From a virus (lineage: Duplodnaviria; Caudoviricetes): 25,248 bases of DNA. Under the pieces are notes generated by a model. That model was given only the letters and a program-made list of their open reading frames with translations, ran no database searches and had not been told where the DNA came from. A program made the translations under genes and the position numbers. This document shows positions 1,444 to 22,331 of the stretch, in pieces. Positions within the stretch are counted from its first letter, which is position 1; the number at the start of each line of letters is the position of its first letter. The stretch covers positions 1 through 25,248 of IMG/VR virus record IMGVR_UViG_3300037755_000394; one strand, written 5' to 3'.

Positions 1444-1912
1444 ACATGCGGGCGGGCGCCCCTCGAAATACAAGCCTGAGTTCGTCCACCAAGCATACGA
1501 GATAGGGAAGCTCGGGGCCACGGACGAACAAATCGCATCAATTTTTCAGGTTGCAATAGCGACTATCAGCAACTGGAAAACGGACTACCCCGAGTTTTTA
1601 GAAGCCCTAAAACGCGGCAAGCGACACGCGGACGAGGCGGTAATAAAGTCTCTTTACGAACGGGCAAACGGCTACACCTGCAAAGAGACAAAAGTCCTTG
1701 TCGTGAAAGGCGAAGTGGTCCAGGTCGAGATCGAAAAGCACCATCCGCCGGACGTGACAGCCTGCATTTTCTGGCTGAAAAACAGGGACCAGGCGAACTG
1801 GAGAGACAGGACTGAGGTCACGGGGGAAGGCGGTGCTCCGGTCGGGCTGATAATCAAACGGTATACCGAACCGGCGGGTGAAATTGACGGCCCTCGAAAT
1901 ACGGACAAATAG
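1427..1912 (+). CDS. terS: terminase small subunit
   Basis: GGRPSKYKPE N-terminus, HTH-like GATDEQIASIFQVAIATISNWK, and PPDVTACIFWLKNR motif; lies directly before terL. ATG 1427 preferred over TTG 1391. Confidence 0.85.
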   Translation: MAEKGKHAGGRPSKYKPEFVHQAYEIGKLGATDEQIASIFQVAIATISNWKTDYPEFLEALKRGKRHADEAVIKSLYERANGYTCKETKVLVVKGEVVQVEIEKHHPPDVTACIFWLKNRDQANWRDRTEVTGEGGAPVGLIIKRYTEPAGEIDGPRNTDK

Positions 1913-3212
1913 TAAGCCTCAGGACGATTTTGTATTCAGCGAGGCGTTTGAGACACTTTTCGGCGGCCGGGCCGGCGGCGGCAAAACTCACGCGATGGCG
2001 ATCGCGCTGATACTGGGGGTCGATCACGCAGACTATTCCGCACTTGTGCTGCGGCGAACATTCCCGGAATTGGTCGGTAAGGGGGGCATTATCGGGATTC
2101 AACGCGAATTTTATCCGGCGCTGGGCGGCGTATTCAACCGGCAGGAAAAATCCTGGTCGTTCCCTTCGCGGGCTGAGATTAAATGCGGGCACATGAAAAA
2201 TGCCGATAGCCATTACAACTACCAGGGCAAAGAGTATCACGTAATCGGTTTTGACGAGCTGTCGCACTTCCTGCCTGAGCAGTATCAGTACATGTTCTCT
2301 CGCGTTCGGCGAAAGTCGGACAGCGCATTCCCGACCAGAATTCTGGCTACCGCAAACCCGGGCGCGCTGTGGGTTTACGAGCGCTGGCGTCCGTGGCTGG
2401 ACACGAAGCATCCCAACCCGGCAGCGCCCGGCGAAATACGTTACGTCCGGCTCGAAGGCGAGGAAGAGAAATACGTCGAATACGACCCGGACGACAAATT
2501 GCAATGGAGCCGGACTTTTATCCCGGCGTCGTACAAAGACAACCCTGATCTAAATCAAGACGAATACGAGCGGACCCTGGACGCGCTCCCGTATATTGAG
2601 CGCCAGCGGCTAAAGTACGGCGATTGGGGGATCACGCCGGGGTCTGGAAAAATCCTGAATCGTGAGTGGTTCGGAGTGGTCGACAAAGTGCCGGATGGTC
2701 TCGGGGTGTATCGGTACTGGGACTTTGCAGCGTCGGAGAAAAAAACAAGGGGCGACGACCCGGACTATACTGCAACATGCTATCTTGCGACCGACGGGCA
2801 GAAATACTACCTGCGAATAGACCGGAAGCGCGTGACCTGGCAGACGCTAAAGATGTGGTTTTCGGCCTGCGTCCAGCAGGAATCGTGGTGTGTCCACGGC
2901 TGGGAGCAGGAGGGCGGCGCGAGCGGGAAAATACTGTCAGCGGAATTGCAGGAGATCGCGGCCCGGTACGGCGTCGGCGGTCACGGCGTCCCGGCATCCG
3001 GCCAGGGCGACAAGGCGCAGCGGGCGCAGCGCTGGTCCTCTTTCGCCGAACAGGGCAGAGTTTATTTGCTGACCGGCGGAGAACCGATTGACAATATTCT
3101 GCACGAATTCCATTCTTTTCCGGATGGGAGTCACGACGACATGGTCGACGCGGTGAGCGGTGCATTTTTACTTGCGTCAATCGGTTCGGGTGCGGCTGTC
3201 GGGAGGTATTGA
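1878..3212 (+). CDS. terL: terminase large subunit
   Basis: Walker A GGRAGGGKT, Walker B IGFDE, coupling motif ATANP, nuclease motifs YWDFA, DPDYTA and HDDMVDA. Confidence 0.95.
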   Translation: MKLTALEIRTNSKPQDDFVFSEAFETLFGGRAGGGKTHAMAIALILGVDHADYSALVLRRTFPELVGKGGIIGIQREFYPALGGVFNRQEKSWSFPSRAEIKCGHMKNADSHYNYQGKEYHVIGFDELSHFLPEQYQYMFSRVRRKSDSAFPTRILATANPGALWVYERWRPWLDTKHPNPAAPGEIRYVRLEGEEEKYVEYDPDDKLQWSRTFIPASYKDNPDLNQDEYERTLDALPYIERQRLKYGDWGITPGSGKILNREWFGVVDKVPDGLGVYRYWDFAASEKKTRGDDPDYTATCYLATDGQKYYLRIDRKRVTWQTLKMWFSACVQQESWCVHGWEQEGGASGKILSAELQEIAARYGVGGHGVPASGQGDKAQRAQRWSSFAEQGRVYLLTGGEPIDNILHEFHSFPDGSHDDMVDAVSGAFLLASIGSGAAVGRY

Positions 3213-3712: not shown

Positions 3713-3746
3713 AAAAGCTTGACAATTGTTCCCGAGTCAGTCTATT
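3712..3746 (+). promoter_or_regulatory. putative promoter upstream of portal
   Basis: A-tract, perfect TTGACA (3719-3724), and TCTATT 16 nt later. Shares GCTTGACAAT-N6-CGA-N2-CAGT with the site at 6342. Confidence 0.5.
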
Positions 3747-3782: not shown

Positions 3783-5141
3783 GTGAAAGTCGGACTTCGC
3801 GTCTTCCGCGCGCACGCTTCGCTACCGGAGGGCGCCGCGTCTCAAGTCGATCATTTGTTGCCGCCTGAACCCGAGCAGGGAAAAGACTTTGATCAGCGCC
3901 GCGGCAACGAGCTGTACACGACGTACGAGACCCAGGTCAATGCGATTTACAATCTATACGAGAACCGGTCGCAGTTCGGGTGCGGCGAGACGCGGATGGT
4001 TATCGACTGGAGGGCCACCCAGATCGCAGGAAACGGCGTCAACTTTTCCAGCGAAGACCCGGCTACGAACGAATTTCTGACGCGATGGTCGCGAGAAAAC
4101 AAGCTGACCGGGCTTCGGGCATGGGAATTCGCCCGCACCGGCGAGATGGAAGGCAAATCGCTCCTTTACAACGAAAAGCGCACCGTACGGGGAAAGAAAA
4201 AAATCTTAGTCAAGCATCTCCCGTGGTACCGGTGGCAATACAGGGTTTACGGTAGCGATGACGACGGCGAGGAAATAGACCGCATCGAATTTCAGGACGC
4301 GAAAAAGCAGCTCGTTAAATTGACGGAAGGACAATTCGTTTATGCGCGGCTCGGCGGCGTTTCTTCTAATCGTGACGGATACGTATTGAATAATACTACG
4401 CCGCCCGTCGCGTATTCTCTGTATCACCTGGTAAATCTCGGGCGATGCCTTGCGGATCTCCGGGATAATAACCACCTTTTCTATAAGCCGGCACTGGCCC
4501 TGGAAGCAAAGGACTCATTAAGCGCGCAGTCATTGCGGTCGCTCCTGTTTGGACGAAAAACAAAGGGAGATCTGGCTGCCGAATTGCAGGTGAATGACCG
4601 GACGTTTTATATTGTCGACGGGAAGATGTATTTTGTCGAGCCGTCCGGCGCCTGTGTAGAATCGTCGATAAAAGAAGCCACAATACTCACGCAAAAAGTT
4701 TCATCCGACCAGGGAATTCCGGTGCATTTCCTCGGTATGCCGAATCTAATGTCGAACCGCGCGACGGCGGACGATCTGCACGAGATGGTCAACGGTACTA
4801 CGATGCGCCAGCGCGAGGCGTGGAAAGACGCGTACACCGAACTGGCAAGGCAGGCTTGCGAACTGGACGGCGGAAATTACGATCTGGATTCTATCACCGT
4901 TACGATGCCGGTCGTGATGCTTTCCGATATTGATCGAATCGTCCGCGTCTGGTTGCCGCTCTATCAAGAGGGGTTGATCGACAAGCGGTCCATGATCGAA
5001 AAAATCCCTGGCGTGGACCCTGAAATAATTCTCGAAAGGCTCGAAGAGCAGTCGCAAGAGAGGCAGCGCCAGAGCCAGGAAATGGCCGGCTCGATCCTCG
5101 ACGAGATGAACAATCGCCGCCAGGCGGAGGAAGCGGCATGA
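3783..5141 (+). CDS. portal protein
   Basis: Position after terL and size about 450 aa; GIPVHFLG..SNRATA motif; C-terminal ..EIILERLEEQ. GTG 3783 after AAGGGA preferred over TTG 3726, which lies inside the promoter motif. Confidence 0.8.
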   Translation: MKVGLRVFRAHASLPEGAASQVDHLLPPEPEQGKDFDQRRGNELYTTYETQVNAIYNLYENRSQFGCGETRMVIDWRATQIAGNGVNFSSEDPATNEFLTRWSRENKLTGLRAWEFARTGEMEGKSLLYNEKRTVRGKKKILVKHLPWYRWQYRVYGSDDDGEEIDRIEFQDAKKQLVKLTEGQFVYARLGGVSSNRDGYVLNNTTPPVAYSLYHLVNLGRCLADLRDNNHLFYKPALALEAKDSLSAQSLRSLLFGRKTKGDLAAELQVNDRTFYIVDGKMYFVEPSGACVESSIKEATILTQKVSSDQGIPVHFLGMPNLMSNRATADDLHEMVNGTTMRQREAWKDAYTELARQACELDGGNYDLDSITVTMPVVMLSDIDRIVRVWLPLYQEGLIDKRSMIEKIPGVDPEIILERLEEQSQERQRQSQEMAGSILDEMNNRRQAEEAA

Positions 5142-6343
5142 GGCTAATTCTACACTGCGAAAAACGCCTATCTCTGAGCAAGGATGAAATCCTGTCTCTG
5201 ATGGACGACACGACGCTTGCCGCAATCAAGGCGGTGGACGCGGCGCCAGTATTTCAGGCGTACGTGGCAATGGCCGAGGGCGAAGCGAATCCCACAGTTT
5301 TTGACGATCAATCCGCAAAGGCCGGTATTCTGGAAATCACTCGCGGGGCCGTGGCAACGTTCGTTGATTCGGTTCGTTCGAAAATCGGTGAAATTAAAGA
5401 TTCATTACGACTATGGGTGAACCACTCCGACGCGCGCAATGCAGCCGAAGCCAATCAGCAACGGCCCGCAATCGCATATGTTGCCGGGGCCCGGACTATG
5501 ACGATCGGCCAGAAGCTATACGGCGTAATTGCGGCATATTTCCCGCCAGAGTCTCGCGCGCACGCGGGCCAGTACGATTCAGTATCCGCAGAATTTAATT
5601 TTGAGTCGGACGAGAACAAGACCGGGCGCCATCTCGTCGATAAAATAGTCAGTGTTTTCGGAATCGCGCTTTTGCCGAAAGGCGCCCGGCCCGCGGTATC
5701 GGAAGCGAAATCGCTCGGCGTAGCTTACGCACAATATACCCCTGAGAGGGGAGGAAGGATTATGGACTTAACGGCAGTGAATTTTGAGGATCTTGTTTCC
5801 GAAATGCGGAGACGGCATACGCAATTCAAGCAAATATATCTACCGGACCAACTGATCGGGAAGCGCCATCGTCATAATGACGGCACGATTCAATGGATCG
5901 GCGGCGACTCAGAAGTCAATGGGATCGTCAACAAGGTGATAGAGGATACTCTCGCTAAAGAGCGCGAGGAAATTGAGGCTCCCTGGAAAGAAAAGATCAA
6001 GGCTCTCGAAGAGAAAGAAAAGGAAATCGCCGATCTGAAAGCAGAGTCGCTGCGATTCAAGGCCGTTCCTTCGCTACAGGCTAAGGTCAAGGAACTAAAG
6101 CTCGACGCAGTGCTGGCGGGCCGCATAGACCGCCGGGCTGCGCAGTTTACGCCTGGCGAAGACCTTGACAAATCGATTCAGGAATTTATCGACCGCGAGA
6201 AAGCAGAGTACGAGGCCGATCTGGCGTTGATGCCGGAAGACAAACGTCCAACGCCGAACCTCGGCGGAACGGATACTGGTCGAAGCGCCGACTCGAATGC
6301 GCCAGAAAACTGGATCCCAGACTATCCGGAAGAATTCAAATAA
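5138..6343 (+). CDS. prohead protease-scaffold fusion (putative)
   Basis: Lies between portal and capsid genes. N-terminal domain has His (WVNHS) and Ser (DSVSAEF) motifs; C-terminal domain is charged coiled-coil ending in a Pro/Gly-rich tail. Confidence 0.65.
   Translation: MRLILHCEKRLSLSKDEILSLMDDTTLAAIKAVDAAPVFQAYVAMAEGEANPTVFDDQSAKAGILEITRGAVATFVDSVRSKIGEIKDSLRLWVNHSDARNAAEANQQRPAIAYVAGARTMTIGQKLYGVIAAYFPPESRAHAGQYDSVSAEFNFESDENKTGRHLVDKIVSVFGIALLPKGARPAVSEAKSLGVAYAQYTPERGGRIMDLTAVNFEDLVSEMRRRHTQFKQIYLPDQLIGKRHRHNDGTIQWIGGDSEVNGIVNKVIEDTLAKEREEIEAPWKEKIKALEEKEKEIADLKAESLRFKAVPSLQAKVKELKLDAVLAGRIDRRAAQFTPGEDLDKSIQEFIDREKAEYEADLALMPEDKRPTPNLGGTDTGRSADSNAPENWIPDYPEEFK
5762..6343 (+). CDS. 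nested in-frame scaffolding protein (internal start)
   Basis: In-frame ATG 5762 is preceded by the purine run GAGAGGGGAGGAAGGAT, at the boundary before the coiled-coil region. Confidence 0.5.
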   Translation: MDLTAVNFEDLVSEMRRRHTQFKQIYLPDQLIGKRHRHNDGTIQWIGGDSEVNGIVNKVIEDTLAKEREEIEAPWKEKIKALEEKEKEIADLKAESLRFKAVPSLQAKVKELKLDAVLAGRIDRRAAQFTPGEDLDKSIQEFIDREKAEYEADLALMPEDKRPTPNLGGTDTGRSADSNAPENWIPDYPEEFK

Positions 6344-6378
6344 AAGGCTTGACAATGAGCGACGACACAGTACATATT
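6342..6378 (+). promoter_or_regulatory. putative promoter for the decoration/capsid cluster
   Basis: AAAAGGC, TTGACA (6349-6354), and TACATATT at 6371-6378. Confidence 0.55.
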
Positions 6379-6384
6379 CACAAC

Positions 6385-6564
6385 AACAGCTTGAGCAAGC
6401 ACAGGCTTCCGCGAGACGGAGATGTCAAGCGCGAAGAGCCCGAAACTCAGGCACCATTCGACGCATCCTCAATCGAGGACGAGGCCGGAGAGGCGAAGAA
6501 GCGCGGAGAGCGCGCCCCCTGATAAAACTCAGGAGGGCGAATCCAATTCTGGAGGCTCTCCACA
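6385..6564 (+). ncRNA. structured 5' leader (multi-hairpin cis-regulatory RNA candidate)
   Basis: Hairpins: TTCCG-CGAGA-CGGAG within GCTTGA/TCAAGC; TCCTC-AATC-GAGGA; GCC-GGAGA-GGC; GCGC-GGAGA-GCGC; CGCCCCCTGA-TAAAAC-TCAGGAGGGCG; TGGAG-GCT-CTCCA over the SD. Confidence 0.6.
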
Positions 6565-6957
6565 ATGTCAATTTTTCTCCGCGACACAACGGAGATTATC
6601 TACTCAACGATAATCGACACTCCGTCTGGCGGTATCACAAAAGGCGATTTCGTACAGGTCGGCTCAGGCTCGGTCTACGGATTCGCGTTTTCCACCGCAA
6701 CACTCGATCCAACGGACCGCGACAATTACGCCGAACAGGTGACGATCGTCACCAAAGCGCGTCAGGTACGTATCACCAAAGACACAGGCACAGGCGAACC
6801 GGAGTTTGCCCAGGGCGAGACGGTCTATATTGACCCCGCGACCGACAAGGCAGAAAAATCCGGCGGCAGCAATATCAAAGTCGGGTTCGCCCTGACTGCC
6901 GCAACAACGGCGGACGACGGAGTCACTTCTGACTTCGATGGCCGGCTGGGTCTGTAA
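6565..6957 (+). CDS. capsid decoration/cement protein (DUF2190-like)
   Basis: 130 aa directly before the major capsid gene; ITKGDFVQVG, FAQGETVYID and VGFALTAA pattern; RBS GGAGG. Confidence 0.65.
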   Translation: MSIFLRDTTEIIYSTIIDTPSGGITKGDFVQVGSGSVYGFAFSTATLDPTDRDNYAEQVTIVTKARQVRITKDTGTGEPEFAQGETVYIDPATDKAEKSGGSNIKVGFALTAATTADDGVTSDFDGRLGL

Positions 6958-6969
6958 GGAGGTCCAAAA

Positions 6970-8052
6970 GTGAACGAAAATACAATCGTAAAAAAAGCGC
7001 ACATGAGCGCGTTCTTTGACCTTTTGCAGTCCGGAATTGATCCGAAACGCGGCGAAGGCGAAAAGACCGAGATCAGCAAAAAAGTCTCTGGGATCATGAC
7101 CGCCTTCCTGCGGCGTCCCGAGTCGGAGCTCAAGCAGGCGAACGAAAAAATATCAACGCTCGTCGCGCACGCTTCTACGGCGAAAGGCGATATTCCGAAT
7201 ATCCTGACCGACATGGCCCAGGTTTTCCGGATCGTCAGAAACTTCGACACTGCCTGGGAACAGGCGTACACCGAAGCTCTGGTCGATCAAGGCAAGGATT
7301 ACTGGGAAATCGCCGACATGACGAACGGCATCCAGTTCCGGAAAATTCCGGAAGCCGGTCGCTTGCTCGTCGAGGGTATTTCCGGTTCTCTGGCCCTGGC
7401 CCGGGTCGAGAAATTCGGCGCCGCGCTCGGGTGGACTGACGAAGCAATCCGGTTCCGGCGTATCAATATCTTGCAACAACAGGCTCAGGCCGCGCAGGAT
7501 TCGTACGCGCAGGACCGGGCAGATCGTCACTACCTGCTGCTTGCTGGCGCAATCCTCGGCGGCGGTGTGAACACCACGACTTACCAGGCGGCCGGATCGC
7601 CGGCACTGAGCGAGCGGGAGCGCGACGTCAAGACGATCAACAGCGCTGCGTTCGCCCTGGCGAATCGATTGAAAGATCAGCACGTCGGGAACCCGCTGGG
7701 TCAGGAGATGATCCTCTACGCGAACCCGATTTTATGGGATCGGATTATCGCGGCTCTGCGTCAGACTTCGCAGGACGTACCGGGCGCGCCGAATCGGGTG
7801 CTGTACAACATCAGGTATATCCCGACGTTCAACAGCTATCTGAATTCGACGACGGGCGAATCGACCAATACGACGGCGCTCCTCGTACTACCTGGCTTCA
7901 AAAACCAGAAGGCAACCGTCATGGAGCCGACGTCGTATTTCCGCTTCGATCACCTGACGCTCGGGTTCACCGAGGCGATCTGGAGTTACTACGGAGCAAT
8001 CGCAGAGGCGAGCGCGGCGCAAACTCAGGTGCAGGCCGTCGAATTCGCGTAA
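6970..8052 (+). CDS. major capsid protein (HK97 fold inferred)
   Basis: 360 aa; very strong RBS TAAGGAGGT; E-loop-like FRKIPEAG followed by VEKFGAALGWTDEAI; synteny. Confidence 0.8.
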   Translation: MNENTIVKKAHMSAFFDLLQSGIDPKRGEGEKTEISKKVSGIMTAFLRRPESELKQANEKISTLVAHASTAKGDIPNILTDMAQVFRIVRNFDTAWEQAYTEALVDQGKDYWEIADMTNGIQFRKIPEAGRLLVEGISGSLALARVEKFGAALGWTDEAIRFRRINILQQQAQAAQDSYAQDRADRHYLLLAGAILGGGVNTTTYQAAGSPALSERERDVKTINSAAFALANRLKDQHVGNPLGQEMILYANPILWDRIIAALRQTSQDVPGAPNRVLYNIRYIPTFNSYLNSTTGESTNTTALLVLPGFKNQKATVMEPTSYFRFDHLTLGFTEAIWSYYGAIAEASAAQTQVQAVEFA

Positions 8053-8055
8053 CAA

Positions 8056-8463
8056 ATGTGGGCAACACTGACAGAGGCGGCCAGTTACCTCGGCGAAACA
8101 ATCGGCGGCGAAGCGTGGGCTTCGCTGACTTCCGATCAGCAGTCGAGGTATCTGACAACCGCCTTTCGTCAGTTGTCAAATGACCCGAATTATTGCTTTC
8201 CGGATGATACGGAAACGTACATGGCCAGCGCCAATATCGAACTGGCGTTCTGGCTGGCTTCGAATCCGGACGCGCAAAAAGCGGTCGATCTTGCAAATTC
8301 CGGTGTCGAGTCGTTTCGGATCGGCCAATTTGCGATGGCATTCCGCGGCGATGATCAAATTTCCGTCGGGCGGGCATCGTACCCGGCAGTGGTGATCAAT
8401 CTGCTTGATCGTTACCGCTGCGATATACCGGCGGCGGCGAAATTTATCAGAACCAATGGCTGA
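8056..8463 (+). CDS. head-tail adaptor/connector
   Basis: WATLTEAASY..AWASLT..YLTTAFRQL..ANIELAFWL..GVESFRIG pattern, directly after the capsid gene. Confidence 0.7.
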   Translation: MWATLTEAASYLGETIGGEAWASLTSDQQSRYLTTAFRQLSNDPNYCFPDDTETYMASANIELAFWLASNPDAQKAVDLANSGVESFRIGQFAMAFRGDDQISVGRASYPAVVINLLDRYRCDIPAAAKFIRTNG

Positions 8464-9280
8464 CGCGGCTGAAAAGAAGATGGCCCGGATCGGGCTCACG
8501 GAACTCTTGCGAGTGATGCGGGCCGCACGGGTGAGTATCGCCAGGCAAATATCGGAGGGCGTCGCGAACCCGGGCCGATGGGAGGACAAGCTGTCCAGGA
8601 TCTCGGCCACGTACGAACTTATCCGGCGGCAGTGGGCCGAATACATCAGCTCTGAGATACCGGAGCAATATGGCCGCGGTATCAAGGCGGCTGCGGCAAT
8701 CCTCAAAGAACGACTGCGGCAATCGGTCCCAGAACTCGGGACGGTTGCGGCACTTGTCTCAGACTCGATAGCGCGGATGAATCTCGCGACGCGGGAAGGC
8801 GAGGAGCTGGTCCATCTGCTTTTCCGGCGCACCCAGCAGGCTGCTTTGCTCGACGAGGAAATATCCCGGCGTCTGGCCGAGGGCCTGACCGACGAAGCTA
8901 CGCCGAATAATCTGAAAAAAATACTGAAAACTGACCTGTACAAAGCGCTTTCAGGCGGAAATGTTCTGCTGATAAACGGGCGGCGGTACAAGGTCGATAA
9001 CTACGCCGAAACCCTGGCGCGCACGCGCACGCGCGAGGCCCAGAGCGCTGCGACACTCGATACCGTGAATTTTGCAGGCGAGGATCTGGTGAGAGTCAGC
9101 AGCCACAACACCACTACCCCGCTTTGCAAAAAAGGAAACAAGCTCGGATCGCCTGTGTACGAAGGGTCAATAAATTCCCTGTCGGGCCGCCACCCGAAAT
9201 ATCAAAAACTTGATCGGGTATGCCCGTTCCATCCGAATTGCCAGCACGTGATAACGGCGTATATCGAGGTCGCGGCGTGA
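8456..9280 (+). CDS. minor capsid/head morphogenesis protein (SPP1 gp7/MuF-related)
   Basis: GRRYKVDNYAETLARTRTREA, DLVRVSSH..PLC and PFHPNCQH motifs; ATG 8456. Confidence 0.75.
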   Translation: MADAAEKKMARIGLTELLRVMRAARVSIARQISEGVANPGRWEDKLSRISATYELIRRQWAEYISSEIPEQYGRGIKAAAAILKERLRQSVPELGTVAALVSDSIARMNLATREGEELVHLLFRRTQQAALLDEEISRRLAEGLTDEATPNNLKKILKTDLYKALSGGNVLLINGRRYKVDNYAETLARTRTREAQSAATLDTVNFAGEDLVRVSSHNTTTPLCKKGNKLGSPVYEGSINSLSGRHPKYQKLDRVCPFHPNCQHVITAYIEVAA

Positions 9281-9963
9281 TTCGGGTTGGAAACGAAAAT
9301 GCACGCCCGAGGATGCCGCACGCCATGATTCGAGTATCCCGCGCCGCGCCGACCGGCAATACAAACTGGCTTGTGGAATGGTGCAAAGGCGAAGACGTTT
9401 TTGTCGTTGCGGGTGGATCGTCTCTCAAAGATTTCGATTTTTCGAAACTGAAGGGACGTCGCGTCGTAGCTGTGAACCGATCAATATACAAAGTTGACGC
9501 GGATATTGTTTGCTTTCTGGACGCCGAAATGGCGGCTGAATTTCGCAAGAAGTTCCCTGATTTTCCGGATGGTTGGAAAACGCGCATCGTCGCAGGGCAT
9601 TACGGGGGCGTATATCCGTCCAGGAATGTTACTGTTGTACGGATTTCGAATATGATGCCGCGCGCTGCTTCGCCGCATGGACCGATGGTTGGCCGCGCGT
9701 CTTCGGCACAGCTCGGAATTTCGTGCGCTATCGTTGGGGGCGCGCGAAAGATTTATCTGCTCGGTGTCGATGGCGATTCGAACGGTCATAACACACCACA
9801 CCCAAACGATGCAAAATCGAAGGAATGGCACAAGGCGCAATACGGCAGAATCGCAAGTTCATTTTCCGCTTTCGAGCCGTGGAAATCGATGATCGTAAAT
9901 CTGAACAAAAAATCGAACGTGAAAGTGTTTCCGTTCGGGGATGTTGACGAGGTTCTCGCGTGA
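9277..9963 (+). CDS. Maf/DUF115 (MptE-like) fold protein, candidate nonulosonic acid transferase
   Basis: VVAGGSSL..VVAVNRS..ADIVCFLD..SSAQLGISCAIVGGARKIYLLGVD motif series. GTG 9277 overlaps the upstream TGA and follows RBS GAGGT. Confidence 0.6.
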   Translation: MIRVGNENARPRMPHAMIRVSRAAPTGNTNWLVEWCKGEDVFVVAGGSSLKDFDFSKLKGRRVVAVNRSIYKVDADIVCFLDAEMAAEFRKKFPDFPDGWKTRIVAGHYGGVYPSRNVTVVRISNMMPRAASPHGPMVGRASSAQLGISCAIVGGARKIYLLGVDGDSNGHNTPHPNDAKSKEWHKAQYGRIASSFSAFEPWKSMIVNLNKKSNVKVFPFGDVDEVLA

Positions 9964-10595
9964 TACCGATCTTTATACCAGCGCGCGGTAATTCGAAGCG
10001 GATTCCACGGAAGAATTTGCAGCCATACAGGGACACAACCCTGCTCGGGTGGGGGATTCGGAATGCGTCACGGGTCGGGCCAGTCTATGTTTCTACGGAT
10101 TGCGCCGAAATTGCGTCTAACGCGCGAGAAAGCGGAGCGACAGTTATCGACCGCCCGGCGGATATTGCGGACGACTATACTCACGCTTTCGAAGCTCTAA
10201 AACACGCTCTGCCGTTGATGGGGATCGAAAAATACGTTGGGATGCTTAATATCACATGCCCTGAGCCAGGCTGGCCGCAAATAATCGAAGCATTGCCGGC
10301 GCTGATGAAACGCAATCGAATTGCGGCATTCACGGCCTACCCATTCCGGGGATTTATTTATTCGCGCAAGGGGCCGGTGCTTGAATCGCATAACAGAGCG
10401 TGGAACCAGCGCCCGCGATCTCAGGATCAGCAGACGTATAGGGAATCAGGCGCGTTCTATTTTTTCCGTGCCGACCATGTAATGCTTATGCCTGATCAGA
10501 TCATACCGCAATCTCAGATTATAGAAGTGCCGGAAACTCCGGAAATCGACTACCCGGAGGACCTCGAAAGATGCCGCATTTTGTCGCAGAAATAG
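9960..10595 (+). CDS. neuA: CMP-nonulosonic acid synthetase (acylneuraminate cytidylyltransferase)
   Basis: IPARGNSKRIPRKNL, YVSTD, IDRPADIADD, RSQD, YRESGAFY and EIDYPEDL. Confidence 0.9.
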   Translation: MIPIFIPARGNSKRIPRKNLQPYRDTTLLGWGIRNASRVGPVYVSTDCAEIASNARESGATVIDRPADIADDYTHAFEALKHALPLMGIEKYVGMLNITCPEPGWPQIIEALPALMKRNRIAAFTAYPFRGFIYSRKGPVLESHNRAWNQRPRSQDQQTYRESGAFYFFRADHVMLMPDQIIPQSQIIEVPETPEIDYPEDLERCRILSQK

Positions 10596-11398
10596 GGATA
10601 AATCACAACGGGGACCCGGCGAATGCGATTAGAATTGCAACACGTCTGAAGGGATATGCCGACGTTATAAAATTCCAGCATATGCACCCGCGAAAATTCC
10701 TGTCGTTGGAATCGTATAACAGCCCGCACCCGGTCCCCGAAAATTCATTCGGGGCATCGTACGGAGAGCACAAGGAATTTCTGTACTGGCCTATCGAAAC
10801 ACACAGGGAAGTTGCGAACACAATTCGCACTCTCGGAATGCAGGTCGCCTGGTCAGTATGGAACCATGATGCGGTCGATGAGGTGCTCGCGTCTGAGCCT
10901 GCGTACGTCAAAATACCGTCCGCGCTCTGTAATGATTTCGGGCTATTGCAGCACGTTTTCAGTGGAGCGAAATGCCCGATCCATATTTCGTTCGGAATGA
11001 CGCGCGGAGAAGAGCGCGAGGCCCTGATCGCATTTATCGCGAGGTTTCCGGGAGTCGAACATGTTCTATACGATTCCACGTCGGATTATTCTAACGAAAA
11101 TGGGAGTGTCTACATGACGCGACTGAATTCCGGTGTTTGCGGGTTTTCATGCCATGCGCCTTCGATCGCGTTCGGAATTGTTGCTGCTTCTCACGGATTC
11201 GATTATGTCGAATACCATGTGACCTTATCTCGCGACATGAAAGGAACAGATCACACAATATCACTCGAAGTCGAAGAATTTCAGGAAATGGTATCTTTGT
11301 GCAGGGATGCGGCGCGTATAAGTGACAAGCGACCGGACGAAGTCTCAGAATTTGAGGCGAGTGCCCGGAAAAAACTATGGCTCGGCGGAGAACAATGA
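10571..11398 (+). CDS. neuB: nonulosonic acid synthase, NeuB family, short form without the C-terminal SAF domain
   Basis: VAEIGINHNGD, VIKFQ, YVKIPSA, GFSCH and EYHVTLSRDMKGTDH; 275 aa. Confidence 0.9.
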   Translation: MPHFVAEIGINHNGDPANAIRIATRLKGYADVIKFQHMHPRKFLSLESYNSPHPVPENSFGASYGEHKEFLYWPIETHREVANTIRTLGMQVAWSVWNHDAVDEVLASEPAYVKIPSALCNDFGLLQHVFSGAKCPIHISFGMTRGEEREALIAFIARFPGVEHVLYDSTSDYSNENGSVYMTRLNSGVCGFSCHAPSIAFGIVAASHGFDYVEYHVTLSRDMKGTDHTISLEVEEFQEMVSLCRDAARISDKRPDEVSEFEASARKKLWLGGEQ

Positions 11399-11997
11399 AA
11401 AAAGTTAAAGCTTCTATCGAAAACCTGAATCCAGAAACGCGGAGGATAATTCAGGAATGCCTGCGGTTTAACGGAGGCCGTTCGCGACCGGACAAGACTG
11501 CACCTGCTATCCTCAAGGCCCTCGAAGGAAAACACGGCATGATCCTGGACGTGGGCTGCGGGCGCGGATCGTTTGGGCGAATTATTCACGCGGAATACCC
11601 TAACCGGTTCGGCGTCGACGGCGTCGAGGTCCACGGCGAATATCAAAAAGACGCATCGCGCGGCGGATACCGGAAGATTTACCGTGAAAACTATCTGGAG
11701 ACGTATTTCAAGCGGCGCGGGTATCAGTTCTATTTGTTCGTCGACGTGCTGGAGCACTTTGACGTCAAGTCCGCGATCAAAGTAGTCAAGACGATCCAGC
11801 GCCTGGATAAAGAATCCACAGTTCTTGCGTCGATTCCTAACGCGCCGAAATACTGGAAACAAGACCCTGACTTCGAGAATGCGAACCCGCATGAGGCGCA
11901 CCTTTTCAACTGGACCGACGAGCTTGTCGAAGCTGAACTCGGACTGAAAAAAATAGCTTCGCCGGATGGTCTCGGGGTATATTCGAACCGGCCATGA
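11395..11997 (+). CDS. class I SAM-dependent methyltransferase
   Basis: ILDVGCGRG, DGVE, DVLEHF and SIPN. ATG 11395 overlaps the neuB stop. Confidence 0.85.
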   Translation: MKKVKASIENLNPETRRIIQECLRFNGGRSRPDKTAPAILKALEGKHGMILDVGCGRGSFGRIIHAEYPNRFGVDGVEVHGEYQKDASRGGYRKIYRENYLETYFKRRGYQFYLFVDVLEHFDVKSAIKVVKTIQRLDKESTVLASIPNAPKYWKQDPDFENANPHEAHLFNWTDELVEAELGLKKIASPDGLGVYSNRP

Positions 11998-12713
11998 ACG
12001 CCTGTATCGTAATAGCGGCGGAGGAAAATTTCCGCCCGGGGCTGACGACGCTACTGTATTCGCTACGTAAGCATAATCCGGGATTGCCCCCAGTCAAAAT
12101 TGCGTCCGCCTCAATTTCAGAATTCGAAGATTGCGAAATACTGGCGGTCGATCCGTCTGAGTATAAGGGATGCGCGCCGGTCGGTAGCAGATTTACAGCA
12201 GCATGGCACAAGCTCGAAGCGTTCCGTTTGCATGGGTTTGACCAGGTAGTCTTGCTTGATTCTGATCTGCTTTGCCTGGGAGACATTTCAGAGTTGTGGG
12301 CCGAAACGTCGGCTGACATTCGCACGACACTGCTAAAGCGCGGCGTTGATTCTTCCGTGTGCGTGCTCGGGAAAAAAATCCGCGACCACTGGGTACACCA
12401 CAAACTCGTCTGGTACGGACGCAACGGAAAGAGCTACGACGGAGGGGATCAGGGCGCAATCGATTCACTACTCGCGCAATTCCATTTCAAGCACAAGCCC
12501 CTGGCGAGAAAATACAGCGTACTGAAACGGATTTACAAAACGCCTCAGTGGGCGAATATTAAAAAAGACATACGGTTGCTGCATTTCGTGGGTAGCAAGA
12601 AGCCATGGAACGCCGGGCTACCCGCATCCGCTCTTGAAAGAAACGGCGGCGAGCGTGGTTACGAAGAGCTTGAAGAAATCTGGCACAGGTATCACCGCGA
12701 GGCGACCGCGTGA
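11994..12713 (+). CDS. glycosyltransferase family 8 (glycogenin-like)
   Basis: LLYSLRKHN, KLEAF, DxD motif LLDSDLL, GDQG and LLHFVGSKKPW. Confidence 0.85.
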   Translation: MNACIVIAAEENFRPGLTTLLYSLRKHNPGLPPVKIASASISEFEDCEILAVDPSEYKGCAPVGSRFTAAWHKLEAFRLHGFDQVVLLDSDLLCLGDISELWAETSADIRTTLLKRGVDSSVCVLGKKIRDHWVHHKLVWYGRNGKSYDGGDQGAIDSLLAQFHFKHKPLARKYSVLKRIYKTPQWANIKKDIRLLHFVGSKKPWNAGLPASALERNGGERGYEELEEIWHRYHREATA

Positions 12714-13450
12714 AATTATTTCGACATATTGACATTGAAACGTCGAACCTGTGCAACCGGTCGTGCTCTTATTGTCCGGTTTCGCTCGGGCTGCGTGGCG
12801 GTGACAAATATATGCCGCTCGCTGTGGTAGAGAAAATAGCCAGAGAACTCGGAGAATTAAATTACGCTGGGAATATCAATTCGAACATGTATAACGAGCC
12901 ATTGACTGACGTCAGGCTCGCACAAATTTACAGGATACTTAAAAAGGCAGTCCCGAAATGCCGTATCCGGCTGCTTACTAACGGAGACTATCTTTCGCCG
13001 GAACGCGCGGACGAGCTTTTCGATGCGGGCCTGGATTCGATTCGAATCACGGATCATAATCCGGTGCCGAATCAAAAGCTAAAATCTAACGTTGAGGCAA
13101 TCGCAAACAAATATCCAGGAAAGGACATCACACTTAACCGTCTCGAAGGACAGCTCCGCAACCGCGGCGGCACAATCAAGCATGAGGACGCGCAAGCGCC
13201 GGCTGCTGTGTGCTGGCCGCGCGGCCACTCGCGCGCATACATCGATTTTCTCGGGAACATGATCGGCTGCTGTGACGATCCATTTTCCACGAAGATTTTC
13301 GGGAACGTTGCATCCGAAAAATTACTTGACATATGGAATAGCGCGGAATACGTGCGGTTTCGTGACGGTCTTGACAGCGGGCGATATTACTATAAGTTCT
13401 GCAAGGATTGCAATTTCAACGCGGGTAAACAAATACAATGCGAATCGTAG
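12710..13450 (+). CDS. radical SAM protein with SPASM/twitch domain
   Basis: CNRSCSYC, YNEPL, TNGDYL; C-terminal VC..GNMIGCCDD..FGNV..LLDIWNS..CKDC. Confidence 0.9.
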   Translation: MKLFRHIDIETSNLCNRSCSYCPVSLGLRGGDKYMPLAVVEKIARELGELNYAGNINSNMYNEPLTDVRLAQIYRILKKAVPKCRIRLLTNGDYLSPERADELFDAGLDSIRITDHNPVPNQKLKSNVEAIANKYPGKDITLNRLEGQLRNRGGTIKHEDAQAPAAVCWPRGHSRAYIDFLGNMIGCCDDPFSTKIFGNVASEKLLDIWNSAEYVRFRDGLDSGRYYYKFCKDCNFNAGKQIQCES

Positions 13451-13800
13451 TTGATATTGATGGAGTCGTTTGCACCGCTGCTTTTAATGACGGTCTCCCC
13501 GACTATGGGTCGGCCAAACCAATCGTAAAAATGGTGGCGAAAATAAACGATCTGTATCGCAGCGGGCATGAAATAATAATGCACACCGGTAGGCACTGGA
13601 ATTTGCTCGCATTTACGCATGAGCAATTGCATGGCTGGGGGTTGCTGTATCATTCTCTGGTGATGGGTAAACCGCCGGCAGATGTTTTAATTGACGACAA
13701 ATGCGTATTGCCGCAAAATTTTATTTGCAGCGAGGTTGGAGATATTGTGGCCAAAATTGATTCAGATACGCGAGTATATTTTGATCGGAATATTTCTTAA
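13438..13800 (+). CDS. capless HAD-superfamily phosphatase (capsule biosynthesis phosphatase-like)
   Basis: Motif I VDIDGV, motif II HTGR, motifs III/IV GKPPADVLIDDK. Confidence 0.85.
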   Translation: MRIVVDIDGVVCTAAFNDGLPDYGSAKPIVKMVAKINDLYRSGHEIIMHTGRHWNLLAFTHEQLHGWGLLYHSLVMGKPPADVLIDDKCVLPQNFICSEVGDIVAKIDSDTRVYFDRNIS

Positions 13801-14098
13801 TCAGACGCTCACGCGGACACGCATAACGACCAATGAGCTCGGCGGGATAACGAGTGAAGACGAGAAGCCATTTCCATGCCGCGCGGAATTAACCCGGTTC
13901 AGAGTCGCCACGGCGACCGGCGAGCGATACCAGGACGTCTGGAAAGTGTTCGCTATGCCGGGCGCGGACATCCGCGTCAACGATCGAATTATCGTAGCTG
14001 GAACATCGGGGACAGGTGGTGTACCTGATTTCTGGGTCGTCAAAAGTGCTATCGTGCAGCGTGGCTTTTCAGCCTCGCACATGGAAATTGAAGTATGA
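13745..14098 (+). CDS. head closure protein
   Basis: FLNQTLT..NELGG..PFPCRAE..DIRVNDRIIV..SHMEIEV pattern. Start uncertain: TTG 13745 after GAGGTTGGAG, or TTG 13781. Confidence 0.6.
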   Translation: MWPKLIQIREYILIGIFLNQTLTRTRITTNELGGITSEDEKPFPCRAELTRFRVATATGERYQDVWKVFAMPGADIRVNDRIIVAGTSGTGGVPDFWVVKSAIVQRGFSASHMEIEV

Positions 14099-14580
14099 GC
14101 TCCGTCAAAAATACCATCCGCGACGGTGCCGGAAGGTTCGCTCGCAAAATACCGGCGGCTGTGCAGATGGCCGGCGCGTCGGTGGGGCTTGCGATACTGG
14201 ACGACGCGGTCAACGAAGAGCCGACGCCGCCGGTCGATACTGGCCTTTTACGCGGATCGGGGTTTGTCTATTCAGCCGGAAAGCTTGTGAAGGCCGGTCC
14301 GCAGGCAGGCGTCGCGAGCAGTTTTCCCGCAGGCGGGAAGGGATACGAAATCGTGGTCGGATTCAACACGCCGTACGCAAAATACCAGCACGAGGGCTTG
14401 CAGCCAGGCCCAGGGGTCGAAACAAGCTCTGGCAGAAAAATACATCTACAGCCCGGGCCGAAATCACAACAGGCTGGAAACGTCGGAGGCCGGTTTTTGT
14501 TCGCAAAGATAGAGAAAAACAAAGACAAATACGCGGCAATTTTTGCGGACCGCCTCGGGCGCAACACGGGGATGCGATGA
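14095..14580 (+). CDS. neck/tail completion protein (HK97 gp10-like)
   Basis: PVDTGLLRGS and GFNTPYAKYQHE motifs; ATGA overlap with the upstream gene. Confidence 0.75.
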   Translation: MSSVKNTIRDGAGRFARKIPAAVQMAGASVGLAILDDAVNEEPTPPVDTGLLRGSGFVYSAGKLVKAGPQAGVASSFPAGGKGYEIVVGFNTPYAKYQHEGLQPGPGVETSSGRKIHLQPGPKSQQAGNVGGRFLFAKIEKNKDKYAAIFADRLGRNTGMR

Positions 14581-14993
14581 TTTTCCATCTGCTGTACAAA
14601 TTACAGACCGAATTCCCTGATCTGACGTTTGTTGCCGAGGGCGAGCTTTCGTCTGATCCGCAAAGGCGGATTGTGATTCAGTCCACCGGCGGAACGACCG
14701 CAGGGTATTCGGGTCGCGCGGACGACACCGCGCAGATCCGCGTATACGATCTCGATCAATTGCGGTGTTACAACGACGCAAAACGTCTGCACGAATACCT
14801 GAAAGAGCGGTTCCGCGTGGTGTGGGAGCCGCATCCGGTTCTCGGAAGCGGAGCCGGGCCGATAACGATCGCCAGGGTCGCTGCGCCGAACCGCCCGCAA
14901 GCGTTTGGCCGGCAGGAGCCGGACGGGTTAATGCTGTATTTATTCAACGTCGTCGTGACCTGGAGCGATAAAACGCTTGACGTTTCGACGTAG
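14577..14993 (+). CDS. tail terminator protein
   Basis: ATG 14577 overlaps the upstream stop; 138 aa; position directly before the major tail protein; QIRVYD..YNDAKRLHEYL. Confidence 0.6.
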   Translation: MIFHLLYKLQTEFPDLTFVAEGELSSDPQRRIVIQSTGGTTAGYSGRADDTAQIRVYDLDQLRCYNDAKRLHEYLKERFRVVWEPHPVLGSGAGPITIARVAAPNRPQAFGRQEPDGLMLYLFNVVVTWSDKTLDVST

Positions 14994-15004
14994 GTGAGCA
15001 TTCT
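14970..15004 (+). promoter_or_regulatory. putative promoter for the tail genes
   Basis: AAAACGCTTGACG (TTGACG 14977-14982) and CATTCT 16 nt later; third copy of AAAA-N-GCTTGAC. Confidence 0.4.
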
Positions 15005-15009
15005 CAAAC

Positions 15010-15121
15010 TGACGGCTCCCGTCCGCTTCGGCGGCGGGAGCATATCCAATCGCTGGAGAAGCGAGCACGCGCGGAGAGCGCGTTCTGAAATCAGAACGAT
15101 TCCACTCTCTGAGGTGTGCAA
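15010..15121 (+). ncRNA. structured 5' leader of the major tail gene (same motif as 6484-6564)
   Basis: GCTCCCG-T-CCGC-TTCG-GCGG-CGGGAGC; TCGCT-GGAGA-AGCGA; ACGCGC-GGAGA-GCGCGT; CGTTCTG-AAAT-CAGAACG. Confidence 0.6.
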
Positions 15122-15685
15122 ATGTCCAATTCCTTTTTCGGTGGCCCTCTCGACTTGGGCCCCTGCAACGCACGATACGATACCGCGTCCGGCGGCGAAA
15201 ACATCGATCTTGGTCTATTTGACCAGGTCACAATCCGGTTTGGCCAGGAAGTCACGGACCTTGTATCCGCTCAGACCGGTACTCGGTCTGCGGACGAGGT
15301 TATCACCGCAGGATACGCAGAGGTAGAATTCGGGCTCGCGGAAGCAACGCTTGAGCGAATCGCGGCAACGGTCCCCGGCTTCGAGCTCGAACTTGACTCT
15401 GCAAGCGAAGTTGTCGGCGCCGGTTTCGGTACAGCAATTGGTCTGCGGATGTCGTCTATCGACAAGCAGATGACCTTGATTCGCGTTTTCGACGGTATTG
15501 AATCACAAGATCCGCTCGATGAGTGCATTATTTACAAGGTTTCGTTCGTTCCGACGATCGAACTTGTATACGATGCCGCGACACAGCGTTTTTTCAACCT
15601 GATGGGCCGCGCTCGCCGCGATCCCAACCAACTTTCGCCGAGCGGTCGCCCGCTATTTCTGCGCGTCGGCGCGATGGGAATTTAA
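15122..15685 (+). CDS. major tail (tube) protein
   Basis: RBS GAGGTG then ATG 15122; LDLGPC..IDLG..DQVTIRF..AEVEFGLAEATLE pattern; synteny. Confidence 0.75.
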   Translation: MSNSFFGGPLDLGPCNARYDTASGGENIDLGLFDQVTIRFGQEVTDLVSAQTGTRSADEVITAGYAEVEFGLAEATLERIAATVPGFELELDSASEVVGAGFGTAIGLRMSSIDKQMTLIRVFDGIESQDPLDECIIYKVSFVPTIELVYDAATQRFFNLMGRARRDPNQLSPSGRPLFLRVGAMGI

Positions 15686-15701: not shown

Positions 15702-16166
15702 ATGGGCGAGACGGTTTTTAGAGCGCGTAAATCTGCCGGGGAACTGGTGATCGAAGACGCGGACGGCAATGTAAAACATTTGCCGATTCGCGTACTTGAT
15801 CTCCCGACCTGGCAGGAGTACGAATTGTACAGGGGGGAGCATCTCGCTGCACAGTCCGAGCTACAGGAAGTCCAGGAGCAGATCAAAGACGAAAGTATCA
15901 AGTCGACTGAAAAGCGCAAACTGATCTCGCGCGCGAGCGAGCTCGGTTCGCAGGCTGTCAAATCTGTATACGAACAGATGCGGTTTTTCGTTGAGATCGA
16001 AGAGGACGATTTAATCGGACGCGATTTCGATCAGCTTACCCAGATGCTGGAATACATGGTCACGAAAGCATCTTCGCCCGGCGCCAAAATAAAACTCGTT
16101 GTGGAGGGTGAAAGCGAAGACGAAAAAAAGCCCGAAACCGAGAAGCCGGAAGAATCCTCTCACTGA
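15702..16166 (+). CDS. tail assembly chaperone (gpG-like)
   Basis: RBS AGGAGG; acidic helical protein between the major tail and tape measure genes; slippery site near its 3' end. Confidence 0.75.
   Translation: MGETVFRARKSAGELVIEDADGNVKHLPIRVLDLPTWQEYELYRGEHLAAQSELQEVQEQIKDESIKSTEKRKLISRASELGSQAVKSVYEQMRFFVEIEEDDLIGRDFDQLTQMLEYMVTKASSPGAKIKLVVEGESEDEKKPETEKPEESSH
16124..16130 (+). other. programmed -1 ribosomal frameshift site A AAA AAG
   Basis: In-frame GAA AAA AAG gives an X XXY YYZ heptamer; the -1 frame is open to 16453. Confidence 0.85.
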
Positions 16167-16453
16167 CGGAAAGGGGGATTCCGCTTTCCGCAATAATCGG
16201 TGATCGTGGCCTGTACCCCTGGGAATTCGAGGCGCTCGAACAGGCAGCGCGGGCGCGGCGGGCACTTGACCAGCTTGAACTGTACGAGGCTGTAAGTCTT
16301 TCGCATCCGGTCGACTCAAAGCAGGCGAATAAGGTTCAGAACAGGATAAATGCGATCCAGAAGCGATACAACGTTCCATTTGCATACGAGAAACTCGAAA
16401 AGAGAAAGACAATTTGGGAATTGCGGGATCAAGCATTAAAGAGGGAGAAATAA
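16130..16453 (+). CDS. frameshift extension of tail chaperone (gpT-like, 107 aa; fusion about 250 aa)
   Basis: ARNREAGRILSLTERGIPLSAIIGDRGLYPWEFEALEQ...ALKREK*, with no usable start of its own; ends 6 nt before the tape measure start. Confidence 0.8.
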   Translation, partial: ARNREAGRILSLTERGIPLSAIIGDRGLYPWEFEALEQAARARRALDQLELYEAVSLSHPVDSKQANKVQNRINAIQKRYNVPFAYEKLEKRKTIWELRDQALKREK

Positions 16454-16459
16454 AACCAG

Positions 16460-20601: not shown

Positions 20602-22331
20602 CAGTAAATAGAACGTCAGCGGCACTTGGCTCACAAATATTCGGCGAGGAACTACTCGGCGGCGAGACAGACGATTTTATCGTAAACACGTACCCGACGA
20701 TTACGACGCGCGGTCGGGCAACGCTGGGCTGGGGTTATGCAGGCGCCAGGATATTCCGCAAAGGTTATCCGTGGACGCCGTTCACGAAAACCGCAATTTC
20801 GGGCGCTGCCATTTCTTCGATCGTTCTGACTTCATCGTCCGGCGCGATCCTGGGCCGGATACGGTCAGACATAGAAAAAACGATTCTACGCAGTATTTCT
20901 TTTACGCTTGACGAACATGGATGCGCTGATTTTGAGATGGTCCTTAACGCGCTCCCGGATTTTCCGTTGTTGCCGCTATCGATTATTCAGATCAACGTCG
21001 GCAACACGGAATTTGACTGGTACCGCGGAATCGTCGAAGAGGTGCCAGAGGAAGGAACGGCGCGCGGATCGTACACGTTCAAAGGATTCGGCTTGCGCAA
21101 GACTCTTTCGCGCGTAGTCGGAACCGGAACTTACCCGGCAGCAACCGACGTTGGCTTGATCGTTGCCGGGATCGTCGAAGACATCGTAGCGCCCAACACA
21201 AATATCGGATTTAACACTGGAAAAATAGACACTTCCACGGGTATTTTCACGGTGCAGGAACAGGTTATCCAGGAAGCCGACATTCAGAAGCTGATGGACT
21301 CGTACGCGAAAATGGCGAATGCGCGGTGGGGAGTGGACGGTGACGGCGATTTCTATTTTGAGACCCGCGACACGGTTATCGTGAAAAACTGGATAGCAGG
21401 CTACGACTTCCAGAGCTTCGATCCTGCGCTTGATATTCAGAACATCTACAACCGGATAAAAGTAACTCGCAAATTCAATTCCACGGAATCGGGATGGACG
21501 ATCGGCGCAATTTCTAACGATCTCAGGTCACAGGCGAAATATGGAATCAAGGAATTCAATCAACAATTACTCGGGGTATACTCGGACGACGATTGCCAGA
21601 TCGTGGCCGACACACTGCTTGCGGAATTTTCTGAACCGAAATTTGCGGCGAAGGTAAAGCGGATTCCGATTAGGACTGTCTCTGATTTCATTGAGCGCGG
21701 TTTCCATCGTTTCGTCGCGCCCCCGTCTGAATATCGTGCCGAAGTCCAGGATTGCGACGATGCGGACGATTGGGACAGCGACGCCACGAGCGCGGACGAT
21801 CTTGTCCACTCATTGAATACGAGTCTTTTCGTTTCGGGCCTGGGGTCGATTCAGATGTCATGGTCGGACGCGGACGGCGCCTCGATCGTTGCGCCGATCA
21901 CTGCGATCGGCAAAATTCAGAAAGTGCGCTGCTGGATCAACGGCAACCGTCAGGGATTGCTCGTCCGCCTGGGAATCGGGTTCGGATCATTCACACAGTA
22001 CCAGAAGCTCATTGCCTTTGACGTTACCGGAGCTTTCTTCCCTGTAGAATTCGACGTTTCGGCGGAGAATATTTTCGCACTGAACCAGGTCGGGTTTACC
22101 GTCCTGGATTCTTCGCAGGCGACGACGGTTCTGATCGATCGAATCGAACTTGACATAGTAGGCGCAAAGCACTACGAAATGGAACTGACAACATCTCGCT
22201 ACACTCTTGAGCCGAACCGGCAAACAGCGGACGCCGAGTTTGGGCCGCGCAAAAAGATACTGCATGATTACGTGGCGGAAGTGCTCGCGCGCGCGGAGGA
22301 AAATAGAGTGCTTTCGGAGAAAACATCATGA
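20589..22331 (+). CDS. baseplate hub/Tal-like tail protein with probable inserted beta-sandwich domain
   Basis: Follows Dit; YRGIVEE..FKGFG, WGVDGDGDFYF, IYNRIKV and SQAKYGIKE hub-like motifs. Confidence 0.65.
   Translation: MATVTVNRTSAALGSQIFGEELLGGETDDFIVNTYPTITTRGRATLGWGYAGARIFRKGYPWTPFTKTAISGAAISSIVLTSSSGAILGRIRSDIEKTILRSISFTLDEHGCADFEMVLNALPDFPLLPLSIIQINVGNTEFDWYRGIVEEVPEEGTARGSYTFKGFGLRKTLSRVVGTGTYPAATDVGLIVAGIVEDIVAPNTNIGFNTGKIDTSTGIFTVQEQVIQEADIQKLMDSYAKMANARWGVDGDGDFYFETRDTVIVKNWIAGYDFQSFDPALDIQNIYNRIKVTRKFNSTESGWTIGAISNDLRSQAKYGIKEFNQQLLGVYSDDDCQIVADTLLAEFSEPKFAAKVKRIPIRTVSDFIERGFHRFVAPPSEYRAEVQDCDDADDWDSDATSADDLVHSLNTSLFVSGLGSIQMSWSDADGASIVAPITAIGKIQKVRCWINGNRQGLLVRLGIGFGSFTQYQKLIAFDVTGAFFPVEFDVSAENIFALNQVGFTVLDSSQATTVLIDRIELDIVGAKHYEMELTTSRYTLEPNRQTADAEFGPRKKILHDYVAEVLARAEENRVLSEKTS

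Follow-up and report, generated by a model that had tools for sequence, protein, structure and literature searches.

Twin GGAGA-loop hairpins before the cement and tail tube genes of an uncultured phage: a candidate translational switch

Why would two separate virion genes of one phage carry the same pair of RNA hairpins in front of their start codons? The question is raised by a linear virus contig, IMG/VR record IMGVR_UViG_3300037755_000394, which was analyzed over its whole length of 25,248 nucleotides (nt; hereafter the window) and is estimated to be 37% complete. The genes concerned encode a capsid cement protein and a putative tail tube protein, and the sequences before them are called here leader 1 and leader 2. 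A first-pass annotation had proposed a duplicated cis-acting RNA element on these two abundant virion genes, and our analysis supports that proposal: the twin-loop element is real, and it is probably a regulatory RNA. The reading that we favor, with a probability of roughly 45%, is a translational switch that is off by default and would be opened by a protein binding both loops.

Two copies of the pattern GGAGA-N13-GGAGA, and no more, are present in the window (6487–6509 and 15055–15077). The mean chance expectation is 0.07, and none of 100 shuffles contained two copies. The paired loops are spaced 18 nt apart, start to start, in both leaders (6487/6505 and 15055/15073), as first annotated, and this arrangement was found only there. 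Five GGAGA hairpins with a Watson-Crick stem of at least 3 lie on the plus strand, four of them belonging to the twin pairs, and not one twin hairpin pair arose in 300 dinucleotide shuffles. The cores of 31 nt (6484–6514 and 15052–15082) are 84% identical and include the exact 14-mer reported earlier (6501–6514 and 15069–15082). The remainder of the described series, a third hairpin followed by CGA(A/T)TCCA, a Shine-Dalgarno (SD) sequence and ATG, was recovered in place at both loci.

The two copies differ in ways that keep their pairing. Hairpin 1 closes with C-G in one copy and U-A in the other, and in hairpin 3 the outer pairs and the length change with CUGA/UCAG kept, which bears out the compensated stems of the first-pass annotation for these two hairpins. 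The spacer of this third palindrome is 6 nt in one copy and 2 nt in the other, a change more in keeping with an RNA hairpin than with a DNA operator. CGA(A/T)TCCA follows the 14-mer after 23 nt in one leader and 14 nt in the other, a difference taken up inside hairpin 3. Nothing in the window reaches the gathering threshold in Rfam 15, where the best scores of the leaders are 15.3 and 12.7 bits against thresholds of 50–63. The motif is not described in the literature searched on phage CsrA and capsid leaders, GGAGA pentaloops, phage-encoded CsrA-like proteins and tail or capsid leader RNAs. Six supplements of PMC10690425 held no match; its files 1, 2 and 4 lay outside that search and may bear on novelty.

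What might the loops do? When the 3′ part of either leader is included, the predicted minimum-energy fold melts hairpin 2 and pairs its loop beside the SD. The twin-hairpin structure described earlier is also predicted, as an alternative state that is less stable than the best fold. We refer to the two as the on fold (twin hairpins) and the off fold. In the predicted off fold of leader 1, GGAGAGC (6505–6511) forms 7 base pairs with GCUCUCC (6555–6561), UCCA (6542–6545) pairs with 6550–6553, and four of the five SD bases are paired. In that of leader 2, CGGAGAG (15072–15078) pairs with CUCUCUG (15105–15111) and GCACGC (15065–15070) with GUGUGC (15114–15119), and four of the six SD bases are paired. 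The predicted shapes are a long rod for leader 2 and a branched junction for leader 1. Loop 1 is also predicted to be able to pair with early codons in both genes, cement codons 4–6 (UUCUCC, 6575–6580) being a possible partner.

The strand that captures loop 2, which we call the anti-loop, is rare. CTCTCY, the complement of GGAGAG, occurs three times on the plus strand and seven times on the minus strand of the window. Two of the three plus-strand copies lie at −9 of the cement gene (CTCTCC) and −17 of the tail tube gene (CTCTCT), and none precedes any of the other 28 starts examined. It stands 3′ of the SD in leader 1 and 5′ of it in leader 2 and is therefore not simply part of the copied block. 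A combined pattern of loops and anti-loop matches these two places only, and was met in 0 of 100 shuffles. When the bases between hairpin 3 and the AUG were shuffled with the SD kept, capture of loop 2 arose in 1 of 400 cases for leader 2 and 19 of 400 for leader 1. With 5,044 windows of sequence ranked as partners of the two start regions, the leader 2 core came out best for both and the leader 1 core fifth. A trans-acting guide RNA was considered and rejected, as the best sense, non-self candidate in this ranking (3801) lies within the background tail.

The two starts are also predicted to be the most occluded on the contig. Their opening costs, 16.2 kcal/mol for the tail tube and 15.5 kcal/mol for the cement gene, are the highest of 29 starts (median 9.0), and at three context lengths the pair ranked 1–2, 1–2 and 2–3 of 27. 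Bound protein was mimicked by holding both loops single-stranded during folding. This lowered the predicted cost for the tail tube by 7.95, and the best 8 of 53 placements all touch a loop; for the cement gene the cost fell by 3.41, rank 2 of 56 placements. The residual cost depends on context and is 6.3–7.3 in leader 2 and 8.2–12.4 in leader 1. The earlier description of the leaders as preceding the capsid cluster and the major tail gene fits leader 2. Leader 1 stands directly before the cement gene, and the major capsid gene has a start of its own that is predicted to be open (6.0 kcal/mol).

These folds could work as a switch in the following way. In the off fold, the second GGAGAG would pair with the CUCUC(C/U) anti-loop beside the SD and so enclose the SD, with loop 1 possibly engaged by early codons as well. 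The on fold would instead present the two GGAGA pentaloops of hairpins 1 and 2 at their spacing of 18 nt. If both were occupied by a reader that is dimeric or has two sites, its binding would pay the predicted 3–11 kcal/mol cost of this fold and free the start. Candidates for the putative reader are an arginine-rich peptide, a protein like Com or a CsrA-type dimer of divergent sequence, and its gene probably lies in the portion of the phage genome that the contig lacks. We infer the transcription of the leaders, the reader and the direction of control; the reader is invoked because the loops are identical and held at a fixed spacing, which the lock alone would not need, and because no reader was found, its binding stays at that level. 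The open reading frame (ORF) at 1101–1307 was considered as a CsrA-like reader and set aside, since it has no support in Pfam, PHROG or the Atlas. In a bolder form, which we consider doubtful, the element would belong to an uncatalogued phage riboregulon: the twin pentaloops would be both the lock and the keyhole for a new, non-canonical activator that co-induces cement and tail tube, and a module of promoter plus switch would have been inserted by this lineage at two junctions that are tightly coupled in relatives.

By analogy with described systems, the element is best read as a variant of the protein-opened leaders that sequester a start, outside canonical CsrA sites, nut sites and Rfam families. 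In phage Mu, Com acts on a GAG-containing hairpin loop and destabilizes the structure that hides the mom start, turning translation on (PMC6483171). The leaders share with mom an inhibitory structure over the start and a competing upstream hairpin, here as predicted folds. They differ in that Mu has one target gene, whereas here there are two structural genes and two loops per leader. The Com motif CC(N)2-3GAG, as given in PMC6483171, fits one of the four loops (6487). Like CsrA/RsmA leaders, the leaders have GGA in hairpin loops (all four in the predicted on fold), and their 18-nt loop spacing lies within the 10–63 nt that separate two sites bridged by CsrA (PMC7652899). Relief of SD sequestration is the mechanism proposed there for the activation by RsmA of phz2, and likewise of moaA (PMC7652899), and csrA is reported in 30 of 2,517 phage genomes (PMC7366521). 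Unlike the sites described in PMC7652899, the loops are GGAGA pentaloops, and none of the four shows ANGGA or a hexaloop; the lack of the CsrA-preferred ANGGA had been recognized in the first-pass annotation.

Several observations weigh against the switch. The anti-loop idea was formed after the folds had been seen, and its statistics are post hoc. Leader 2 appears to be the clear case, and leader 1 the weaker one, with p about 0.05. The predicted cost at leader 1 remains 11.5–12.4 in long contexts even with the loops open, its best relief (3.6) is surpassed at three unrelated starts, those of the tape measure, ORF 24867 and minor head, and the probability of its hairpin 2 is predicted to be at most 0.34 in transcripts from about 6385. 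Covariation between the sequences is modest, as there are two copies, the changes comprise one pair of hairpin 1 and those of hairpin 3, and hairpin 2 is invariant. No csrA gene was found in the 37%-complete contig itself (0 of 1) or in three relatives (0 of 3), all of them fragments, and PF10122, for com, had no match in any of these four fragments. It is also possible that gap 1 holds a gene running through its loops: of the two gaps that had been called intergenic, the first is not clearly so, because the 55-codon ORF at 6355–6522 crosses both loops.

Relatives add to these points. Capsid scans gave 3 + 1 loci with 33–40% identity to the phage capsid, all four with the gene order kept and a gap of no more than about 20 nt in front of the cement gene. 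Two of them extend into the tail region, where the tail tube gene is preceded by gaps of 0 and 2 nt. None of these four distant relatives has a leader at either junction or twin GGAGA hairpins, so the leaders are lineage-specific or were lost elsewhere. Closer relatives, at 49–66% identity, are known from proteins alone. A capsid scan of GTDB genomes gave no locus, nor did the scan for P0009; tail tube scans for close relatives with DNA found none, and none appeared among GenBank phages when the capsid and tail tube proteins served as tblastn queries. Five pattern scans of sequence collections for a homologous motif returned chance matches only. The first scan of viral contigs gave 19 loci, by eye mostly coding tandem repeats; the second, 49 loci, none with both stems of at least 3; the third, 4 loci, none a leader; and the fourth, 69 loci, all 69 within ORFs of at least 100 amino acids (aa). 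A scan of genome contigs gave 81 loci, of which 2 had both stems, both within long ORFs. With the leaders themselves as blastn queries, GenBank phages yielded short matches only (best E values 0.1 and 0.6).

Natural variation was available from run X2, in which one related contig of depth 4.6 was compared, with 31 of 35 differences listed. Among those listed, none lies at 14545–15109, one at 15110 and 27 between 15125 and 15292, and the contig is about 84% identical from tail tube codon 2. By its sequence, X2 has a mosaic or recombination boundary at the junction of leader 2 and the tail tube gene (15110–15125). Because of this boundary and the identity of 14545–15109, X2 is uninformative on conservation of the motif. 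The change at 15110, the only leader difference listed, turns a G·U pair of the off helix into G-C; it is in line with the switch model, although at such a depth it could be an error. Of the 12 pairs in the predicted helix between loop 1 and the coding region of leader 2, which is rich in G·U, the X2 contig disrupts 3 and strengthens 1, an argument against any importance of this helix.

Could the leaders work with no ligand at all? The hairpins would form first during transcription and leave a brief window for ribosome loading before refolding, and at leader 1 the off fold could also be melted, in read-through transcripts, by ribosomes finishing the 55-codon ORF. We regard this as unlikely, although pairing with the anti-loops can by itself explain the loop sequence, and in growing leader 2 transcripts both hairpins are predicted to be dominant until the anti-loop is transcribed, at about 15110. 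The ORF scores as gene-like and stops inside hairpin 3: its coding score lies at the 31st percentile of real genes and above 248 of 248 off-frame chunks, and was equalled by 49 of 500 shuffles. It has a weak SD, no PHROG match and no ESM Atlas match above 0.80. Its translation, if it occurs, might open leader 1 in transcripts that read through; those from the promoter-like site at 6349 would lack the start of the ORF. The corresponding frame at leader 2 has no start and a stop at 15010, so a shared leader peptide is not the explanation of the repeat. A ligand-free scheme leaves unexplained why the pentaloops and their 18-nt spacing are identical in the two leaders, and damping would be odd for abundant virion proteins. 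Nor do the leaders behave like RNA thermometers in the predictions, as the cost of opening both loops barely moves between 10 and 55°C (from 8.9 to 8.2 for one leader and from 11.7 to 9.1 for the other).

The repeat may instead act at the DNA level, as a late promoter or activator site. Late transcripts would then begin beyond the loops, on their 3′ side, and would not contain the inhibitory arm. In T4, where I-TevI, soc, e and others use this logic, long transcripts likewise fold over the SD of late genes (PMC2988022). Such a site would account for the off fold with no RNA reader and for the invariant 14-mer. We nonetheless hold it to be improbable, because the spacing between the 14-mer and CGA(A/T)TCCA is not fixed and its change is absorbed inside hairpin 3, because the differences between the copies preserve hairpin pairing, and because the promoter-like boxes stand 5′ of the motif and not within it. 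In T4 as described in PMC2988022 the promoter lies inside the hairpin, whereas here the sigma-70-like sites, the one promoter type covered, lie upstream, and both copies here keep a second fold that displays the loops. GCTTGAC boxes resembling a −35 element, at 3717, 6347 and 14975, precede the portal, cement and tail tube starts and make up three of the seven plus-strand occurrences. The box at 6347–6354 has an 8-bp inverted repeat at 6423–6430.

A processing or stability signal seems more improbable again. Either the message would be shielded by a bound protein, or a nuclease would cut it at the GGAG loops or in the long helix of the off fold; T4 RegB, which cleaves specifically at GGAG, and the action of RNase III on lambda cIII are precedents. 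The rod-like off fold of leader 2, with its 5′ end capped by a strong hairpin, would suit such a role. Against it, leader 1 has a branched junction, and no rod, as its predicted off fold, and family scans of the contig ORFs found no nuclease candidate.

Antitermination, one of the modes first proposed, would require an arginine-rich protein resembling N to recognize the loops as boxB-like elements. The G-N-R-N-A formula covers GGAGA, as it does the pentaloop of P22 boxB to which N peptide binds (PMC12550061); the stem is short, as in lambda and P22 (PMC3177189, PMC12550061), and a Lys/Arg-rich ORF begins at 24867. Unlike the boxB sites of these sources, the loops here are twinned, adjoin a start codon and have no boxA at a homologous place. 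In nut sites boxA accompanies boxB (PMC3177189); here the best matches to the boxA consensus carry two or three mismatches and lie in non-homologous places. No plus-strand terminator-like site lies within either leader, no N-like protein was found by family matches among the scanned ORFs of the incomplete contig, and the anti-loop beside the SD would be left unexplained. We therefore consider antitermination very improbable; of the modes first proposed, translational control is the one that the anti-loop beside the SD favors. Least probable of all is that a recent duplication left a repeat without selected function, its folds being by-products. This would suit the two known copies, the lack of homologs and the recombination boundary where leader 2 ends, but leaves the copy differences that keep all three hairpins, and the anti-loop retained on opposite sides of the SD, without explanation.

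Table 1. Coordinates of the two leaders, their promoter-like sites and the neighboring genes in the window.
Feature	Position	Strand	Remarks
Scaffold/protease-position gene	5138–6343	+	401 aa; no family match
Sigma-70-like promoter candidate, TTGACA-18-CATATT	6349–6378	+	10/12 consensus match; overlaps start of ORF 6355
55-codon ORF	6355–6522	+	Possible charged 55-aa product; last codons carry both loops; stop inside hairpin 3
Leader 1 hairpin 1, GCC-GGAGA-GGC	6484–6494	+	
Leader 1 hairpin 2, GCGC-GGAGA-GCGC	6501–6513	+	Switching strand GGAGAGC 6505–6511
Leader 1 hairpin 3, CCUGA/UCAGG core	6513–6539	+	In both predicted states
Leader 1 UCCA, SD and anti-loop	6542–6561	+	UCCA 6542–6545; SD GGAGG 6551–6555; anti-loop GCUCUCC 6555–6561
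Capsid cement/decoration gene	6565–6957	+	PF09956, E=9.5e-9; phrog_122, head decoration
Major capsid protein gene	6970–8052	+	PF25209, E=6.4e-7, over cut-off; own strong start, predicted open
Tail terminator gene	14577–14993		phrog_123, E=0.014
Weak promoter-like site, TTGACG at 14977	14975–15004	+	End of tail terminator gene; below reporting level of consensus scan
Strong UUCG-capped hairpin	15015–15041	+	5′ of motif 2; no U tail
Leader 2 hairpin 1, UCGCU-GGAGA-AGCGA	15050–15064	+	
Leader 2 hairpin 2	15069–15081	+	Switching strands CGGAGAG 15072–15078 and GCACGC 15065–15070
Leader 2 hairpin 3, CGUUCUG/CAGAACG	15081–15098	+	
Leader 2 anti-loop, SD and GUGUGC	15105–15119	+	Anti-loop CUCUCUG 15105–15111; SD GAGGUG 15111–15116; GUGUGC 15114–15119; paired in off fold
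Tail tube (major tail) gene, putative	15122–15685	+	Between tail terminator and chaperone/tape measure genes

The gene order of the contig is siphovirus-like, running from terminase, portal, the gene at the scaffold/protease position, cement, major capsid and minor head through a sugar-modification cassette to neck, tail terminator, tail tube, chaperone and tape measure. The tail tube gene is tentatively assigned from its position and weak fold matches. Its product model has a predicted local distance difference test score (pLDDT) of 60, and most of the fold matches that carry names are to major tail or tail tube proteins, the best named match having E=2.9e-3; a fold search of the PDB gave no match at E≤0.001. 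The stretch from 6385 to 6480 contains further hairpins, one of which has a CGAGA pentaloop at 6412. Downstream of the tail chaperone, the open frame at 16166–16459 has a gene-like coding score, as expected of a frameshift extension, and the tail ORF at 22328–23590 contains 123-nt tandem repeats (22749–23486). The ORF at 24867–25247 has repeated KKRG-x-KP motifs in its Lys/Arg-rich product, is cut by the contig end and is without a family match; it possibly encodes a nucleic-acid-binding protein.

Among GenBank phages, the large terminase (1878–3212) is matched best by the methanogen viruses psiM2 and Blf4, at 36–37%, yet the promoter-like sites in the window look bacterial. The sugar-modification cassette (9277–13800), between the minor head and neck genes, comprises sialyltransferase-like, cytidylyltransferase, NeuB, methyltransferase, GT8, radical SAM/SPASM and phosphatase-like members. 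NeuB homologs gave no information on the host. NeuB matches occupy the same position in three of the four distant relatives (L020, 12252–15821; L022, 10207–13853; L072, 11825–16312), which suggests a family-wide nonulosonic-acid modification, perhaps of the virion. Two sequencing runs hold the contig, both of them sediment metagenomes, and the listed runs that hold it include no RNA dataset.

To our knowledge few phage translational activators have been characterized, Mu Com being the model. Lock and loop in these leaders can be separated by compensatory variants, which makes for a sharp test of the switch, and the twin hairpins could serve as bait for a possibly new RNA-binding protein. The reach of the finding is for now one uncultured phage lineage. 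If the switch is real, its duplication would show that the supply of head and tail subunits in this phage is timed and balanced after transcription.

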